Source: a virus
Taxonomy: Duplodnaviria > Heunggongvirae > Uroviricota > Caudoviricetes
Strand: one strand, 5' to 3'
Virus record (IMG/VR): IMGVR_UViG_2877958089_000005
DNA length: 30,775 nucleotides
In this document: in pieces, positions 1,247-9,842 of the stretch
Layout: every line of letters begins with the position of its first letter
Position numbering within the stretch: the stretch's first letter is position 1
The notes under the pieces: generated by a model
Told to the model about the DNA's origin: nothing
Seen by the model: only the letters and a program-made list of their open reading frames with translations
Databases searched by the model: none
Position numbers and translations under genes: made by a program

Positions 1247-1585
1247 TTAATTACAAAGGGCTGTAGCGGCATCAATCACCGGTGAAATTGAAATTTTAAC
1301 GCCGTCATACTCAGGGTCATCCTTCCATACGTCATCTAAGTTAGACCCCTCCAGCTTTCCTGATTTAACAGCATCTACCGCCATGCCATTCAGAGGATAT
1401 CTATCATCAGTTTTGATGTCATACACAAAAGCATAAGCACGGTTAACACATGATACCTTTGCCTTTTCAAAGGTTAGAGGCCACTTGTCACCATATGCAG
1501 CGCCGTCTATCTCTTTAAACTTCTCAGCGGCTATGACTGAGGAAGAAAGTGCAATGCAGACTATCGCAAATATAAACTTTTTCAT
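1247..1585 (-). CDS. Secreted/periplasmic small protein, DUF2511 (YebY-like) family candidate; moron between cI and int
   Basis: 112 aa; N-terminal signal peptide MKKFIFAIVCIALSSSVIAAE; C-terminal ...AATALCN; pattern GDKWPL...C...YPLNG...GK...DDP resembles YebY/DUF2511 as I recall it; SD AGGAG upstream of ATG 1583-1585. Confidence 0.6.
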   Translation of the reverse strand: MKKFIFAIVCIALSSSVIAAEKFKEIDGAAYGDKWPLTFEKAKVSCVNRAYAFVYDIKTDDRYPLNGMAVDAVKSGKLEGSNLDDVWKDDPEYDGVKISISPVIDAATALCN

Positions 1586-1594
1586 TACTGCTCC

Positions 1595-2440
1595 TTAAAC
1601 ATGCTTTTCCAAAGTAAAAATAACCGCACCTGATGGTGTGATATCTGAAATATTACATTCAAACTCAGCAGACTTATTTGATAACCTGACCTTTCCGCCT
1701 GGCAACCTGATTACGTCAAAAACATCGAGTGCGCCATCAATACCAATAAGCCAGCGACCATTTCCTATCTTCGAGTTAGAACTATCAACAAGCCAAGATG
1801 TGCTCACACCATCAATAAACACTAAATCATCAGTATTTGATGGAACCATAGATATATCAGGAGTCCAGCGTCCGATATCTTTGAGTTCGCCCGCCTCGAG
1901 GCGGCACTTTCTAATCGTTAAAGCATTTGCCGGTTCACCATCATTACTGTTACGCATCTGGCCTTTTCCGGTTGATAACCATTCTAACGATACGCCAGTA
2001 TCAAGGGCGCAAGTGACAACCACGTCACCGGGGAAAAAATCGCGTCTAACCCAAGTGCTTATAGTGCCGGAAGATATGCCTAATAAATCTCCAAGCTCTT
2101 TTTGCAGAGTAAAACCATACGCATCGAGAATCCGACGCAGAACCGCCCTCCCTCCATTTGCCATGATTTCATCATAGAGTTGCTTACCTTTAAGCTTAGT
2201 TTTCACCACTTCAAATCTTGCATTTGCAAGCTCACCATTAATTAGCCATCGCAGGTCAGCTCCAGTATCAAGAGCACACTCAACGAAAACGTTGCTAGGG
2301 ATTACGTTTCTAGCAAGCCAGCTACTCACGTTGTTTGCATGTATGCCAAGCCTTTCGGCTAGTTCCTTTTGCTGCTTAAAGCCGTATGCAGAAAGGACAC
2401 GTTCCAATGCGGCAGACGCATTAACATCATTTTTAGACAT
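1595..2440 (-). CDS. cI: 186-type CI repressor with two tandem CI-type HTH domains and a non-catalytic C-terminal domain
   Basis: The track ORF (1595..2629) has a Cys-rich N-terminal extension that I reject; likely start is ATG at 2438-2440 (MSKNDVNASAALERVLSAYGF...). Two repeats of the motif L-R-x-L-x-AYGF-x-x-QKEL-x-x-LGI...W...CALDTG-x-x-L-x-WL. No Ser-Lys dyad like LexA is recognisable. Confidence 0.75.
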   Translation of the reverse strand: MSKNDVNASAALERVLSAYGFKQQKELAERLGIHANNVSSWLARNVIPSNVFVECALDTGADLRWLINGELANARFEVVKTKLKGKQLYDEIMANGGRAVLRRILDAYGFTLQKELGDLLGISSGTISTWVRRDFFPGDVVVTCALDTGVSLEWLSTGKGQMRNSNDGEPANALTIRKCRLEAGELKDIGRWTPDISMVPSNTDDLVFIDGVSTSWLVDSSNSKIGNGRWLIGIDGALDVFDVIRLPGGKVRLSNKSAEFECNISDITPSGAVIFTLEKHV

Positions 2441-2553: not shown

Positions 2554-2925
2554 ATGTCAGATGCAAAATCAATCTCGACGAATGATTCGCAAAACTCACA
2601 AAATCAAACTGTGCTGTTAGATCCAACACAGTTTGATGCCATCGTTACCGCCATGCTGCCAGCTCTCCAGACAATGATTCGCTCCGCTATGTCAGACACG
2701 ATGACTGTGAAAGACTTCGCCGCTACTCGCGGTGTTAGCGAGCGTCTGGTCTGGCAATGGCTCGATGAGGGAGTCCTTCTCAAAGCTCCGACCAAAGACT
2801 TTTCCAACAAAGAGGAAGCTGCTAAACGAAGCCGAACCCTCGTAAACGTAAAAGCATGGCGCGATAAGCTGACTCAACAAGCGATTGATTGTCGCTACAT
2901 CGACCAGCGCACCGCTCTTAACTGA
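2554..2925 (+). CDS. apl: Apl/Cox-like excisionase and transcriptional regulator (HTH)
   Basis: First gene of the rightward operon with SD; central MTVKDFAATRGVSERLVWQWLDEG resembles excisionase/AlpA-type HTH. The 123-aa length is longer than I recall for 186 Apl, so the true start may be internal. Confidence 0.6.
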   Translation: MSDAKSISTNDSQNSQNQTVLLDPTQFDAIVTAMLPALQTMIRSAMSDTMTVKDFAATRGVSERLVWQWLDEGVLLKAPTKDFSNKEEAAKRSRTLVNVKAWRDKLTQQAIDCRYIDQRTALN

Positions 2926-4494: not shown

Positions 4495-6717
4495 TTGGCT
4501 GTTCAATTCGCTTATCCGTGGAACGTCCCACGGTCGGCAATCTCCAGCCCATACCTTACTTATGAGCAACAGCATCGCCGCGACCGTATGTTCGCGGCTT
4601 TGCTGCATGCGAAAAAGGTGCTTTCTCTCCAGCCCGACTGCGTGCGGTTAGATGTTTATCGCACTGCTGCGGTGCTGGAGCAAAATCAGGGTAGTCAACG
4701 AGCCAATGCATTTTTAATCAGCTTCTGCAAAAAGGCATTGCCGCGTCTTGAACTGGTCGCAAAAAAATACGAATGCGCTGGTATCAACAGCAAGGTATCA
4801 ACCGCTGTTTTTGGAAGTCATTTTGATACTCAGCAAATGCAATATCTGTCGTCACGCATGGTTAATATGGTCGCCCGATATAACCGTCTCCCGGACATGT
4901 CGCGCGCTGATGTTGACCTGTTGGCCGCTGATATTGCTAATTTCATTCGTGGTGAACTTGCCAACATTAATGACCACGGATTCGGCGAGCTTAAAACGCT
5001 GTACACCTGGTATATTCGTGCTGGCTTTATTTCCCTCCAATTCAACGTTATCCCACCACATTGGGAGCGGGTTGAAAAAAAATATGTCGGTGCGGATGAA
5101 ATCGCACCGGCTATCGCCAAAATGTTTAACGATGGGTGGTGGCGCGGTCGTTTGCGCCGTGTTGCAGCTACGTGGCGCGAACACCTGCAAATTGCAGTCG
5201 GCAACGTCAGTAAGAAAAAAAACACTTACGCGAGTAAAAACTGCGTGACTGACTGGCGTGAACAAAAGCGCCGCACTCGTGAATTTCTCAAAGGTCTGGA
5301 TCTCGAAGACGAAGACGGCAACCGTATCAGCCTAATTGAAAAATATGATGGCTCAGTTGCTAACCCTGCGATTCGCCGCTGTGAGCTCATGACCCGCATT
5401 CGTGGGTTTGAAAACATCTGTAATGAGCTCGGTTATGTCGGTGAGTTTTACACTCTAACCGCGCCGTCAAAATATCACGCCACGACTAAAGCCGGTTACC
5501 GTAACAGCAAATGGAGCGGTGCCAGCCCGGCTGACACGCAAAACTATCTAACCGGTATCTGGGCGCGTATCCGTGCCAAACTACATCGGGAAGATGTCCG
5601 TATTTTCGGTATTCGTGTCGCCGAGCCCCATCACGACGGCACTCCACACTGGCACATGCTGATGTTCATGCTGCCGGAAGATGTTGAATATGTTCGCTCC
5701 ATCGTCCGTAAATACGCATGGAAAGAAGACCGCCACGAACTGAAAAGCGATAAATCCAAAAAAGCACGTTTCCACGCCGAGTCCATTGACCCGGAGAAAG
5801 GCAGCGCAACCGGCTATGTTGCTAAATACATTTCAAAAAATATCGACGGTTATGCTCTCGATGATGAAACCGATGATGAAAGCGGTGAGCTGCTGAAAGA
5901 GACAGCCCCCGCCGTTTCAGCATGGGCTGCGCGCTGGCACATCCGTCAGTTTCAGTTTATTGGTGGTGCGCCGGTGACGGTTTACCGTGAGTTGCGTCGC
6001 CTCGCTGATACCGAAACCGCGCACGGTCTGAGCGTTGAGTTTGCCGCCGTCCATGATGCCGCCGACGCTGGTGACTGGGCTGGTTATGTTAATGCTCAGG
6101 GTGGGCCGTTTGTCCGTCGCGATGATTTACAGGTGCGCACACTGTATGAACCGCGTACCGAGCTTAATCAGTACGGTGAGGAAACGGTATGTATTAAGGG
6201 GGTCTACGATTCCTCCATAGGTGCAGGAAGCCCGATTTTAACCCGGCTCACTCAGTGGAAGATTGTTCCGAAGCGTGCTGTTGATTTGGCCGTTGACCTT
6301 CAGGACGGCAAAGCCGTCCCTCGGAGTTCTGTCAATAACTGTACGGGAAGCGAAAGCGATCCACCGATACTGGATTTAACAAAACCACTGAGTCGGCGTG
6401 AAAGACGAGAATTAACCAACCGACTCAGGAAGCAAAAGCCAGCAGCACGGCGAAAATTCATCCACGGAACGGATGAGCAAAACGCAGCTATAGCTAAAAC
6501 TATCGATGAGATACATCTGACAACCGGCATTAATATCAGCCGGGGCGAAGCCCTGCACCTGATGGCCGGTGGTAAAAGTTGTTTTGATGGTAAATGGCTA
6601 CGCGGAACGGCCAAAGGAGAAATATTTTCCGCAGCACCATCGCATGAGGCTAAAGCTCGGAAAATCCTTAATCGTGTTGCGGCGATGGCTGAAGCATCAA
6701 AACCAATACATGAGTAA
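4495..6717 (+). CDS. A: Replication initiation endonuclease (P2 gpA-type rolling-circle initiator)
   Basis: 740 aa; HUH-like PHHDGTPHWHMLMF and tandem tyrosines in GYVAKYISKNIDG, as in P2 A. Track start 4495 is TTG after a G-rich SD-like run; first in-frame ATG is at 4588, so the start is uncertain. Confidence 0.9.
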   Translation: MAVQFAYPWNVPRSAISSPYLTYEQQHRRDRMFAALLHAKKVLSLQPDCVRLDVYRTAAVLEQNQGSQRANAFLISFCKKALPRLELVAKKYECAGINSKVSTAVFGSHFDTQQMQYLSSRMVNMVARYNRLPDMSRADVDLLAADIANFIRGELANINDHGFGELKTLYTWYIRAGFISLQFNVIPPHWERVEKKYVGADEIAPAIAKMFNDGWWRGRLRRVAATWREHLQIAVGNVSKKKNTYASKNCVTDWREQKRRTREFLKGLDLEDEDGNRISLIEKYDGSVANPAIRRCELMTRIRGFENICNELGYVGEFYTLTAPSKYHATTKAGYRNSKWSGASPADTQNYLTGIWARIRAKLHREDVRIFGIRVAEPHHDGTPHWHMLMFMLPEDVEYVRSIVRKYAWKEDRHELKSDKSKKARFHAESIDPEKGSATGYVAKYISKNIDGYALDDETDDESGELLKETAPAVSAWAARWHIRQFQFIGGAPVTVYRELRRLADTETAHGLSVEFAAVHDAADAGDWAGYVNAQGGPFVRRDDLQVRTLYEPRTELNQYGEETVCIKGVYDSSIGAGSPILTRLTQWKIVPKRAVDLAVDLQDGKAVPRSSVNNCTGSESDPPILDLTKPLSRRERRELTNRLRKQKPAARRKFIHGTDEQNAAIAKTIDEIHLTTGINISRGEALHLMAGGKSCFDGKWLRGTAKGEIFSAAPSHEAKARKILNRVAAMAEASKPIHE

Positions 6718-6777
6718 TTCATATCCATATCATGCACATACAGCAATCGCTCTATTCGTTTTTTTTCTTCCCATCTT

Positions 6778-6809
6778 TTGCCAATACATGCTACTGTATA
6801 AATATACAG
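6778..6809 (+). promoter_or_regulatory. SOS-regulated promoter: -35 TTGCCA (6778-6783) with a perfect LexA box CTGTATAAATATACAG (6794-6809) overlapping the -10 region
   Basis: Exact CTGT-N8-ACAG palindrome with AT-rich core; SD GGGAGGG and ATG 6831 immediately downstream. Confidence 0.8.
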
Positions 6810-6830
6810 TAACCCTATGGGAGGGATTTC

Positions 6831-7013
6831 ATGGTTGGCGAACATTTCAGCCGAACGCAGCAAAAGTGGGCTTGTGTGCAATTTATTGCCGAGGTATCTC
6901 TGATTGCAAACTGCAAGCCATCAGACTTAAAGCTCGCGCTCACTCTCATTGCAGACCTAGCAAACAGCGAAAATAACGAAACCGAAGATGATAATTTTTA
7001 TAAGGCTGATTAG
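6831..7013 (+). CDS. Small LexA-controlled protein, candidate Tum-like antirepressor N-terminal module
   Basis: 60-aa ORF directly downstream of the LexA box with SD GGGAGGG; ends at TAG 7011-7013, in the same frame as the following DinI-like ORF. Confidence 0.55.
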   Translation: MVGEHFSRTQQKWACVQFIAEVSLIANCKPSDLKLALTLIADLANSENNETEDDNFYKAD

Positions 7014-7016
7014 ATT

Positions 7017-7250
7017 ATGAGAATCAATATCACGTTGGATAAAGAGCAAAAAATTAGTCAGGCAACATTGGATGCACTTGAGGCTGAACTGTACCGCAAT
7101 CTTCAACCTATTTACCCAAAGACTGCTATCCGAATTCGCAAGGGCTCCGCTAATGGCGTTGAACTAAGCGGTTTGAAACTGGACGAAGATAAAAAACGAG
7201 TAATGGAAATCATGCAGCAGGTATGGGAGGACGATAGCTGGCTGCATTAA
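7017..7250 (+). CDS. DinI-family protein (SOS-associated; 186 Tum-like C-terminal module)
   Basis: 77 aa MRINITLDK...LDALEAEL.R...E.DKKRVMEIMQQVWEDDSWLH resembles E. coli DinI (MRIEVTI...IDALAGEL...ISEILQETWESADDW) along its whole length. Confidence 0.75.
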   Translation: MRINITLDKEQKISQATLDALEAELYRNLQPIYPKTAIRIRKGSANGVELSGLKLDEDKKRVMEIMQQVWEDDSWLH

Positions 7251-7252
7251 CA

Positions 7253-7321
7253 AACGCCGCCGGTGCTGAAACTTGCTTTCAGTGCTGGCGGGGTTGAACA
7301 ACTCGCACCGCGAGGCGCTAG
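7253..7321 (+). repeat. Direct repeat copy 1 (69 bp) with internal 15-bp stem hairpin
   Basis: aacgccgccggtgctgaaacttgctttcagtgctggcggggttgaacaactcgcaccgcgaggcgctag; about 60 of 69 positions identical to copy 2; arms ccgccggtgctgaaa / tttcagtgctggcgg pair fully if G-U wobble is allowed. Confidence 0.8.
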
Positions 7322-7445
7322 TTCTTCCTCTCAAAGTTTCTCGATGTTTTATTGGTTACACACCAGTGATGAATGGGACGTTACCTTAGCGGGTTTTATA
7401 GTGGCGCTGTGGCAGCACTAAATAAAATTCATTGAGGGCGATAAT

Positions 7446-7655
7446 ATGCATCGACTACCGGGCGAAATTCCGCAGCACAAAACTAAAAGCATCAAACTGA
7501 TGGCCATCGTTCATCGTCTGCAGCAGATAATGGTCAATGAGAATTTGACACCCGCCGAGCTGGTCGGGTGTGCCGAAATAGTCAGGGATAATTACGGCAA
7601 GCTGGATAGCATCAGCAAGCCGACACATTACTCACCGCCACCACGTCGACCATAG
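7446..7655 (+). CDS. Hypothetical small protein flanked by the two 69-bp repeats
   Basis: 69-aa ORF; GAGGG 7 nt upstream of ATG 7446; stop lies immediately before repeat copy 2. Confidence 0.45.
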   Translation: MHRLPGEIPQHKTKSIKLMAIVHRLQQIMVNENLTPAELVGCAEIVRDNYGKLDSISKPTHYSPPPRRP

Positions 7656-7657
7656 AT

Positions 7658-7726
7658 AACGCCGCCGGAGTTGAAACTCGCTTTCAGGTCTGGCGGGGTT
7701 GAACAACGAGCTACGCGAGGCGTTAG
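7658..7726 (+). repeat. Direct repeat copy 2 (69 bp) with internal hairpin
   Basis: aacgccgccggagttgaaactcgctttcaggtctggcggggttgaacaacgagctacgcgaggcgttag; same architecture as copy 1. Confidence 0.8.
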
Positions 7727-7788
7727 CCGGTCATAGCGTCGCAAATACTTCAACCGTCTGCTGGTTAAATAATTCGAGGTTTTTGGAC

Positions 7789-7983
7789 ATGCAAAATCCC
7801 CTTTCATCGAAAAATGACCCGTTTGCCGATTGGGCAAAGAATCTGACTTTAATGGCTTTAAATAACGACCTGAGCTCTCGCGAGGTGGAAAGCTACACCG
7901 CAAAAATGGTCGAGCAGGCCGGTAAAGATGAGCTATCAGTCGTTATCAAACACCTGTTAAATCACATCAGAATGCGCAAATAA
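7789..7983 (+). CDS. Hypothetical small protein
   Basis: Track ORF 7699..7983 begins inside repeat copy 2; ATG at 7789 (MQNPLSSKNDPFADW...) is a more plausible start; 64 aa. Confidence 0.4.
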   Translation: MQNPLSSKNDPFADWAKNLTLMALNNDLSSREVESYTAKMVEQAGKDELSVVIKHLLNHIRMRK

Positions 7984-7999
7984 GAGGAACTATATAAAT

Positions 8000-8101
8000 A
8001 TGTTATCTCTCGTTTATGAAAATCCGTGGACGACGATTTTTCTGATGATTGTTGCCAGCATGTGCCTCAACAGTGTTATTGGCGCATTGCGCGGTCATTA
8101 A
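8000..8101 (+). CDS. 33-aa hydrophobic single-TM peptide (MLSLVYENPWTTIFLMIVASMCLNSVIGALRGH); candidate small membrane toxin-like or regulatory peptide
   Basis: Below the ORF-track size cutoff; SD AAGAGGA (7982-7988) then ATG 8000; followed by a canonical terminator. Confidence 0.4.
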   Translation: MLSLVYENPWTTIFLMIVASMCLNSVIGALRGH

Positions 8102-8122
8102 TCGCGACAAAACCAGACTAAA

Positions 8123-8149
8123 GCCGGCACCCTGAATGCCGGTTTTTTT
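8123..8149 (+). terminator. Rho-independent terminator
   Basis: ccggca-ccctgaa-tgccgg stem-loop followed by ttttttt. Confidence 0.7.
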
Positions 8150-8309
8150 ATGCCATTTTTCCGCGAATTTCCCGTTTTTTAGTCGTGCATGCATCAGGTG
8201 CATGGTTTTGCATGCGTCAGTCTTGCCCGTTCTGTTCGTGCGCCGCCAGAGCTAGCGCGGATCCAGAGTTGTCATGCAACTGCATTAAAACCGCCCCATA
8301 AAGCGGGCA

Positions 8310-8328
8310 GGCGTGGCGGGGAAAGCAT
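8310..8328. other. Candidate cos site (cohesive-end sequence)
   Basis: ggcgtggcggggaaagcat matches 17 of 19 positions of the P2 cos sequence as I recall it (GGCGAGGCGGGGAAAGCAC); located in the gene-free GC-rich stretch upstream of portal gene Q, where cos lies in P2. Confidence 0.55.
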
Positions 8329-8532
8329 TGCGCGCCAGCGGTGGTGCGTATTATTAAAAATTATCGTCTGAGAACGTCGTGACGGCGCTGTAGTGGCCGG
8401 GTGTGATCGTGGGCGCGTGGTGCGTCTGTGGCGTGGTGCTAAAGGATGGGATCAGTTGCACAATTTTACGGTTTCGCTTTGGCTAATATCCATATTGAGA
8501 CTTTATGTTCCCCACAACAGTTGGAGGCTTTA

Positions 8533-8757
8533 ATGGATAACTATCATATTACAAAAGATGGCGATAAGTGGAAGTTGCAAAAAGAGGGCAATGACCGCCC
8601 TAGCAAGACCGCGACCACAAAGGCCGAGCTGATTAAAACAACATCTGAGTTTATGTCGAACAAAACAGGCTCGGTCAAAATTCACAAGGAAGATGGGAAA
8701 ATTCAGGAAGAACGCACTTATCAGAGAAAAGATGATCCTAAAAAGTCTAAAGGCTAA
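8533..8757 (+). CDS. DUF2188-like small protein (moron between cos and Q)
   Basis: ATG 8533 preceded by GGAGG; 74 aa MDNYHITKDGDKWKLQKEG...IHKEDGKIQEERTY..DDP..KG fits my recollection of the DUF2188 pattern. Confidence 0.55.
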   Translation: MDNYHITKDGDKWKLQKEGNDRPSKTATTKAELIKTTSEFMSNKTGSVKIHKEDGKIQEERTYQRKDDPKKSKG

Positions 8758-8784
8758 CATAGCAAAAGCCGCCAAAATGGCGGC
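8758..8784 (-). terminator. Hairpin terminator after Q (shared, bidirectional with the DUF2188 gene)
   Basis: gccgcc-aaaat-ggcggc stem (8768-8784); on the minus strand it is followed by cttttgc. Confidence 0.5.
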
Positions 8785-8795
8785 TTAAAAGGTGA

Positions 8796-9842
8796 TTATT
8801 CCGGGTTGTCGAGTGTGTACTCTTTGAACCTGATGACCTCCATACCGAGCCAGTCGTTTACCTCCCTGAACCTATCCTGCAGGGGTGACAGCTCATTACG
8901 CACAAATACCTTTGCCACCTTCTCAACGTCACCGAGTGAACCGATATTCTCGGGCTTGCCGCCCATGAGCTGGAACGGTACGCGGTGCGCGTCCATCAGA
9001 TCGGCGGCACTGGCCTTCTTGATGTTGAAAAAGTCATCCTTTGTGGCGACCTCGCTCAGTGGCACGATTTTGATGCCGTCCGGTTTTCCGCCGGGAGCGT
9101 AGAAAAACAGGTTCTTAAAGTTGCCGAGCCCTTTTGAGTTGCGCATCGCCTCGCGCAGCGATTCGACGTCGGTCGCGCTCTGCGCCGGGTCAGTCACATA
9201 CATGATGTAACCCGCGTGCGCGCCGTTCTGATAATACTTGCGGCGGAACAGCGTCGCGGATTCATTCAGCCAGGCGGAATTTAGCGCGCTGAGATATTCG
9301 GGCAGGCCGTAAATCTCCTGATTAATGTCGGGCTCCAGCAGGTGAAACACGGTATCAGGCGCGAACTCGTGCGGCTGGGTGAAGTTTTCCACAAACCAGA
9401 AAATCGAATCGTCGACTCCGCGTCGGGTGTATTTGGCTGGCGAGGCCAGCAGTTTGATTAACTGGCCGGTGACACTGTGGCGCTGCTCAAGAAAGGCGTT
9501 ACCGAACACCAGATAATCGAGCGCAAAGCGGCTGAAATCCTGACGGGATAACAACGGGTGCGGAATGTAGGTGCTCGCGAGCACGTTACGCTTAACATAA
9601 ATTGGCGAGCTGTGATGCACGGCAGAGCGCAGGCTCTTTGCCAGCCCTGAGAAGCTGACCGGCGGCTCGTACCATTTGCCGTTACTGATGCACTCGACGT
9701 AATCCAGAATGTCGCGCTTATCGAGTACCGGCACCGGCTCGCCGAAGGTGAACGCTGTCGTTTTTGGCGGTGCGCTGGCGGTCAGTTGTTGTGGTTTGCT
9801 GGCCTTTTGTGCGTTGGCTTTACGGGATTTTTGTTTACCCAT
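8796..9842 (-). CDS. Q: Portal protein (P2 gpQ family)
   Basis: 348 aa, size and position as P2 Q; minus strand adjacent to P and divergent from O, as in P2. Confidence 0.9.
   Translation of the reverse strand: MGKQKSRKANAQKASKPQQLTASAPPKTTAFTFGEPVPVLDKRDILDYVECISNGKWYEPPVSFSGLAKSLRSAVHHSSPIYVKRNVLASTYIPHPLLSRQDFSRFALDYLVFGNAFLEQRHSVTGQLIKLLASPAKYTRRGVDDSIFWFVENFTQPHEFAPDTVFHLLEPDINQEIYGLPEYLSALNSAWLNESATLFRRKYYQNGAHAGYIMYVTDPAQSATDVESLREAMRNSKGLGNFKNLFFYAPGGKPDGIKIVPLSEVATKDDFFNIKKASAADLMDAHRVPFQLMGGKPENIGSLGDVEKVAKVFVRNELSPLQDRFREVNDWLGMEVIRFKEYTLDNPE

Follow-up and report, generated by a model that had tools for sequence, protein, structure and literature searches.

Separate tumA and tumB genes in a probable PSP3-type SOS operon of a P2-family prophage

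In a 30,775-nucleotide stretch of viral DNA (the whole of which is referred to here as the window), our analyses have identified a P2-family prophage of the PSP3 type (186-like) and, very likely, its SOS operon, in which tumA and tumB are separate genes. The in-frame TAG codon that lies between the two reading frames is, as judged by comparison with related loci, part of a normal two-gene arrangement and neither a defect nor a site of readthrough. The sequence anatomy of the operon, its homology, its conservation, and the type of its repressor were observed directly. A tumA/tumB operon of the PSP3 type has already been described and is ordinary, and the significance of the operon found here extends little beyond its correct annotation: a hypothetical 60-aa gene that automatic pipelines leave unnamed is recognized as tumA, and the prophage can be identified, on sequence grounds, as a probable SOS-inducible PSP3-type P2-family phage that would use an antirepressor route and not cleavage of its repressor. 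A modest addition to the published data is the observation that tumA alone, without a dinI-like gene, is the commonest arrangement.

Identity of the prophage

The window contains the genes of a P2-family prophage (viz. integrase, cI, cII (Phage_CP76), the replication gene A, and the portal gene Q). The first 25 kb of the window show 97% identity over 82% to Escherichia phage vB_EcoM-613R3, and the window is 87–92% identical to the Eganvirus phages PSP3 (87%), SEN1, SW9, SI22, Midge, and RCIP0057, which points to a PSP3/186-like Eganvirus prophage. The operon is located downstream of gene A (4495–6717), near the right end of the P2-family (Peduoviridae) genome, and gene Q (8796–9842) lies past it on the opposite strand.

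Some other genes of the window are also of note. A 112-aa ORF inserted between int and cI (1247–1585, minus strand), likely a lysogenic-conversion moron, carries a DUF2511 domain and has an N-terminus that resembles a signal peptide. The ORF at the apl/cox position (2554–2925, plus strand) has no Pfam match, in agreement with the description of the PsP3 analogue of Cox/Apl as a singleton in which no domains are detectable (Nilsson et al., 2011). A 103-aa DUF2188 ORF (8446–8757, plus strand) is situated close to the presumed cos end, in the interval that separates the portal gene from the SOS operon.

LexA box and promoter of the operon

The operon is headed by a near-consensus LexA (SOS) box, TACTGTATAAATATACAGTA (6792–6811, plus strand), the core of which is CTGTATAAATATACAG (6794–6809). 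The full 20-mer departs from the palindromic LexA consensus TACTG(TA)5CAGTA at 1 position and is the sole such site in the 30.8-kb window, and none of 100 shuffles contained a match to it at 3 or fewer mismatches. The looser pattern CTGT-N8-ACAG has a chance expectation of 0.45 occurrences, and hence it is the complete 20-mer, together with its conservation, that makes the site significant. All 35 tumA loci that were examined retain a LexA box whose CTG/CAG arms are intact, and in 32 of these the distance from the end of the box to the tumA start is 17–23 nt; in 3 Pantoea loci the box lies 52 nt from a tumA start whose position is uncertain. The presence of a LexA box in front of this operon, which a first-pass annotation of the DNA had proposed, is borne out by these results.

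In the RefSeq record of phage 186, gene A is followed by the promoter p95 (−35 TTCACA, −10 TACTGT), a LexA site over the −10 hexamer, the 146-aa tum gene, and the partial terminator t95a. The promoter and LexA box of the window align base for base with p95 and its LexA site, the LexA site of 186 falling on the box described above. The inferred −35 hexamer TTCCCA (6768–6773, plus strand), which aligns with TTCACA of p95, is shared without change by the 7 PSP3-type phages; the 186 hexamer differs from it at one base only. In this alignment it is separated by 18 nt from the inferred −10 hexamer TACTGT (6792–6797, plus strand), which is identical to the annotated −10 of 186 p95 and is situated inside the LexA box. 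A consensus scan for promoters and terminators over positions 6600–7500 gave no canonical sigma-70 site and no terminator, and the promoter of the tum operon is therefore placed by homology to the annotated 186 p95, of which it would be the equivalent, with the box over its −10. The earlier suggestion that the LexA box overlaps a sigma70-like promoter holds in respect of the overlap, by way of TACTGT, but not in respect of TTGCCA (6778–6783) as the −35 hexamer. This candidate was absent from the consensus scan and was rejected; it reads TTATCA in PSP3, SEN1, and SW9 and is not conserved.

tumA and its product

The first gene of the operon, tumA (6831–7013, plus strand, with its stop codon TAG at 7011–7013), encodes a small acidic-tailed protein of 60 aa, the presumed antirepressor of CI. 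It is preceded by the Shine-Dalgarno sequence GGAGG (6820–6824, plus strand), which is located 6 nt before the ATG and is conserved in the alignment of PSP3-type loci. The TumA protein of the window is 98% identical to that of PSP3. It matches the family phrog_1993 (E = 1e-31), which is also matched by the N-terminus of 186 Tum (E = 1e-22), and hhalign aligns TumA residues 16–47 with 186 Tum residues 14–45 (E = 1e-4), the alignable core of the N-terminal module comprising 32 columns with 34% identity. In tblastn searches, residues 14–146 of 186 Tum are colinear straight across the in-frame stop codon in 613R3 and SEN1. These similarities indicate that TumA, the first product of the operon, and the N-terminal part of 186 Tum, which precedes the DinI-like part, are homologous. 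An AlphaFold2 model of TumA, of moderate confidence (mean pLDDT 66), consists of a two-helix hairpin (residues 4–25 and 30–48) and a disordered tail; a fold search would not be meaningful with so small a protein and so uncertain a model.

TumA matched no Pfam family and its PHROG is labelled "unknown function," both of which would fit a different interpretation of the operon, viz. that it is only an SOS-modulating accessory (a moron of the DinI type), that TumA is no antirepressor, and that any induction takes place by another route. We regard this interpretation as quite unlikely, because TumA is homologous to a part of an experimentally defined antirepressor, 186 Tum; because the literature on PSP3 assigns antirepressor activity to TumA (PMC3121763); because in most lineages tumA stands alone behind the LexA box; and because the CI protein of the prophage has no autocleavage domain, so that SOS induction requires an antirepressor.

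Homologues of TumA form 208 clusters at 90% identity, of which 120 were inspected. Among these 120, 102 clusters consist of proteins of 60–61 aa, the longer ones result from miscalled start codons, with extensions upstream through the LexA box, and none carries a fusion to DinI. The TumA alignment contains 24 invariant columns among 22 sequences, and the dN/dS of the core is ~0.03 in a crude Nei-Gojobori estimate over 95 sequence pairs, i.e., TumA is under strong purifying selection. Across the Enterobacteriaceae, TumA thus appears as a standalone protein of 60–61 aa.

tumB and the downstream hairpin

The second gene, tumB (7017–7250, plus strand), is in the same frame as tumA and encodes a 77-aa protein of the DinI family. 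Its product had been called DinI-like from the sequence, and this assignment is upheld by its matches to Pfam DinI PF06183 (E = 7e-24; 84.3 bits against a gathering cut-off of 24.2) and to the E. coli DinI structure 1GHH (E = 2.6e-9 over residues 1–75). The TumB protein of the window is 99–100% identical to TumB of PSP3 (99%), SW9, and Midge, and 47% identical to its 186 counterpart; it is colinear with the 77-aa internal-start product that is annotated in 186 tum. The start of tumB lies 3 nt past the stop of tumA and the sole SD-like motif of the gene is an AAGG located 11 nt upstream, and for these reasons tumB is likely translationally coupled to tumA.

A long RNA hairpin (7253–7295, plus strand) follows tumB at the position of t95a, which is placed 22 nt after tum in the 186 RefSeq record. 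The stem contains an uninterrupted 15-bp run (G-U pairs included) and there is no U tract. The minimum free energy of the 76-nt folded segment (7245–7320) is −35.9 kcal/mol (z = −4.6), and none of 200 shuffles folds as well. Small unannotated ORFs without a Pfam match are found past the hairpin at 7446–7655 (the equivalent of PSP3 gp37) and 7699–7983.

In two related loci, viz. those of vB_EcoM-613R3 (L002, 1818–2048) and Escherichia sp. E1V33 (L010, 1687–1911), tumB is 186-like and 47% identical to TumB of the window. Both keep a tumA of the window type (100% and 98% identical, respectively) together with the TAG-ATT-ATG junction, and the recombination breakpoint lies within approximately the first 35 nt of tumB. 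In a metagenome-assembled genome (MAG) of Atlantibacter (L021, 1687–1916), the tumB homologue was matched as two overlapping pieces in different frames, which suggests a frameshift in this gene or an assembly error.

The stop codon between tumA and tumB

The coordinates of the two reading frames given in the first-pass annotation were confirmed: the tumA stop TAG (7011–7013) is followed by ATT (7014–7016) and by the tumB start at 7017, all in one frame. Three readings of this junction had been offered (viz. a nonsense mutation that splits a Tum-like protein, a natural two-gene arrangement, and a site of stop-codon readthrough), of which only the natural two-gene arrangement survives the comparisons, all 7 of the close phages being split and all 120 inspected clusters unfused.

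Under the first of these readings, a recent nonsense mutation would have split a fused 186-like tum and left a crippled induction module, i.e., a pseudogene. The presence of TAG-ATT alone between two ORFs in frame and the run of 186 Tum across the stop codon in 613R3 and SEN1 are in its favor, but the evidence against it is such that we consider it extremely improbable. The GAT/GAA-TAG-ATT-ATG junction is common to the 7 close PSP3-type phages, which were isolated independently and are viable, and PSP3, which is split in the same way, is a functional phage. The junction is also present in E. coli genomes; the tumA module occurs in 81 of 5426 complete genomes of this species, and PGAP annotates two genes in the 10 that were listed. 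Moreover, the tumA stop codon is TAG, TAA, or TGA depending on the lineage, tumB is often absent, and neither the relaxed constraint nor the fused close orthologues of a nonsense-disrupted pseudogene were found. Nor is the split unusual among relatives, since in the alignment check the PSP3-type phages and the other Peduoviridae sampled all encode two separate genes, each with a start of its own. Between 186 and PSP3 the gene did undergo either a fusion or a split, but this belongs to the evolution of the two lineages and is no lesion of the present prophage.

A genome scan based on one genome per species yielded 28 tumA loci from at least 12 enterobacterial genera, and gene A is located upstream of tumA in 26 of them. 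In tblastn searches a dinI-like gene was found downstream of tumA in only 7 of these species-level loci. The other 21 have no tumB or dinI-like gene after tumA, which argues that TumA is a self-sufficient module, and P2-like prophages with tumA only were confirmed in two larger genomic contexts. The predominance of the tumA-only form argues for a dispensable DinI module and for the fusion found in 186 as a derived form; a derived origin of the fusion is also probable from the wide distribution of the split and tumA-only forms, which are found in several genera of Peduoviridae and in many genera of enterobacteria. In one Salmonella prophage (L045, 8359–11407), a DNA methylase gene and a HATPase-domain gene occupy the slot of tumB, and this prophage is present on hundreds of contigs (844 counted).

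The remaining reading is that the TAG codon is a programmed readthrough site, from which a minor but functional 139-aa TumA-TumB fusion, the equivalent of 186 Tum, would be made beside TumA. Two observations suggest it: the PSP3 clade (TAG + 3 nt) and an Atlantibacter locus (TAA + 3 nt) both retain a single stop with in-frame spacing, and the fused form is functional in 186. However, among the 7 species-level loci with a dinI-like gene, the 3-nt in-frame spacer is confined to four near-identical loci and this Atlantibacter locus; the spacer is out of frame both in Phytobacter (TAG + 2 nt) and in Pantoea (TAA + 13 nt), and spacers of 2, 3, and 13 nt mean that the frame is not conserved. The 10–12-nt spacers of the Fels-2-type operons fall in all three frames, the identity of the stop codon is variable, and tumB is missing from three quarters of the species-level loci (21 of 28). 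In addition, tumB has an ATG of its own that is conserved in every tumB-bearing locus examined, and an Rfam scan of positions 6000–9000 found no RNA family and so lends no support to a recoding element. With neither the identity of the stop nor the downstream frame conserved, programmed readthrough is highly unlikely. A weaker form of this idea, in which low-level readthrough of the TAG in the PSP3 clade, or its efficient suppression in amber-suppressor hosts, would give a 139-aa fusion that tunes the threshold of induction, has the in-frame spacing as its sole support and we give it a similarly slight chance; if true, readthrough would make the PSP3-type arrangement a living intermediate between the split and the fused antirepressor. 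The natural two-gene arrangement is the reading that we adopt in what follows.

The CI repressor

The cI gene (1595–2440, minus strand) encodes a 281-aa immunity repressor of the 186 family, the inferred target of TumA, in which Pfam identifies Phage_CI_repr (in two stretches) and Phage_CI_C. No Peptidase_S24 domain was found by Pfam in the CI of the window, in accordance with the earlier view that this cI lacks an obvious autocleavage dyad, and the absence of this domain implies that SOS induction needs an antirepressor. The CI of the window shows 32% identity to 186 CI and 67–91% identity to the CI proteins of TumA-bearing phages; PSP3 CI is of the same long type and is 73% identical. The long protein has two tandem Phage_CI_repr HTH domains in addition to Phage_CI_C, whereas 186 CI (192 aa) has one, and hence the interface between TumA and CI is not simply transferable from 186. 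In the literature, PsP3 CI has been described only as having a longer C-terminal domain (Nilsson et al., 2011).

A long CI is present in every phage or prophage seen with a PSP3-type TumA (viz. PSP3, SEN1, SW9, SI22, Midge, RCIP0057, 613R3, and the loci L044 and L045). The phages with a fused 186 Tum or with a Fels-2-type 62-aa Tum were matched as short CIs only. The antirepressor and the repressor may thus co-vary, each type of Tum going with a type of CI.

Proposed mechanism of induction

LexA binding, the antirepressor action of TumA, and the role of TumB are proposed here by analogy with the literature on 186, PSP3, and the E. coli HS prophage. In a lysogen, the LexA protein of the host would occupy the box at 6792–6811, which overlaps the −10 hexamer, and the operon would be silent. 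DNA damage would activate RecA, the resulting self-cleavage of LexA would permit transcription of tumA and tumB, and TumA would then bind the 186-type CI, so that the lytic promoter would no longer be held and lytic growth could begin without cleavage of CI. TumB would be made from its own ATG 3 nt past the tumA stop, probably by coupling of termination and reinitiation, and may act as an accessory DinI homologue that modulates the RecA/SOS signal and is dispensable for the switch. Both 186 Tum and PSP3 TumA are cited as antirepressors that bind CI and keep it off its operators (PMC3121763). The 186-type route of induction that had been proposed for this prophage agrees well with a LexA-repressed operon after gene A, a homologue of the N-terminal part of 186 Tum, and a CI of the 186 type; indeed, the fusion aside, the operon has all the features of the 186/PSP3 Tum operon that could be tested.

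Comparison with known systems

The closest known counterpart is the operon of Salmonella phage PSP3, in whose GenBank record (AY135486) the first ORF is tumA, "similar to 5' end 186 tum; UV induction of prophage," and the second is tumB, "similar to dinI and 3' end of 186 tum." The two operons are alike in their position after gene A, the LexA box, the 183-nt tumA, the 234-nt tumB, and the GAT-TAG-ATT-ATG junction; they differ by point differences only, the immunity region being more diverged than the tum operon. According to Lemire, Figueroa-Bossi and Bossi (2011; PMC3121763), 186 Tum resembles an antirepressor fused to DinI, and the tum of PSP3 and Fels-2 is split by a stop codon, with the antirepressor activity in the upstream gene; for PSP3 TumA this activity is a personal communication, cited second-hand (PMC3121763).

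The operon of 186 is likewise located after gene A, has a LexA-repressed promoter with the box over its −10, and consists of an N-terminal antirepressor module followed by a DinI-like module, with a CI of the 186 family as its target. In 186, however, the two modules are fused in one 146-aa protein, whose sense linker exceeds that of the split form by ~36 nt, and orf97 is found downstream. A free 77-aa DinI-like product is nevertheless common to both, since 186 tum has internal starts, including a GTG with its own SD, that give a 77-aa DinI-like "truncated Tum," annotated as a RecA/SOS modulator. Fused tum genes occur in ~28 records of the phage collection, all at least 90% identical to 186 tum. 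The single-ORF fusion of 186 is not present in the window, which has the TAG at this point, and the element is therefore filed as the split PSP3 type and not as the fused 186 type. The statement that tum is split is said to have its primary source in Bunny et al. (2002).

A second split type is represented by Fels-2 and E. coli HS (phrog_698; found in Felsduovirus, Elveevirus, and Klebsiella Peduoviridae). In all 6 of the phages sampled from these other Peduoviridae lineages, the slot after gene A holds a 62-aa ORF, a 10–12-nt spacer, and a separate 77-aa dinI-like gene, and a LexA-like box is present upstream in 4 of the 6 loci under a strict pattern. This type resembles the operon of the window in its small ORF, its separate DinI-like gene, and its position; it differs in its small protein, which is no more than a distant relative of TumA, in a spacer that contains a proper SD, and in its short CI. 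An hhalign comparison of the TumA profile with the 62-aa Tum of the Fels-2 type gave no significant match (probability 0.7%), and the kinship of the two proteins extends no further than weak cross-matches between phrog_698 and phrog_1993 (E ~1e-3) and the matches of 186 Tum to both PHROGs. An in-frame deletion of tum in the P2-like prophage of E. coli HS abolished induction by mitomycin C (Phollow preprint, PMC11195241), and the published primers match exactly, in three phage loci, the 62-aa phrog_698 ORF and the start of the separate downstream dinI-like gene. By analogy, this deletion offers independent experimental support for the small upstream gene as the inducer, HS Tum itself being remote from TumA.

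Comparable operons are also known from the lambdoid Salmonella prophages Gifsy-1/2/3, which have the LexA-controlled antirepressors GfoA/GftA/GfhA (PMC3121763). The Gifsy prophages share with the window a LexA-repressed operon that contains a small antirepressor gene and a DinI homologue, as well as a repressor that is not cleaved, but in their operon dinI comes first, and their phage family, antirepressors, and repressor proteins are unrelated (PMC3121763).
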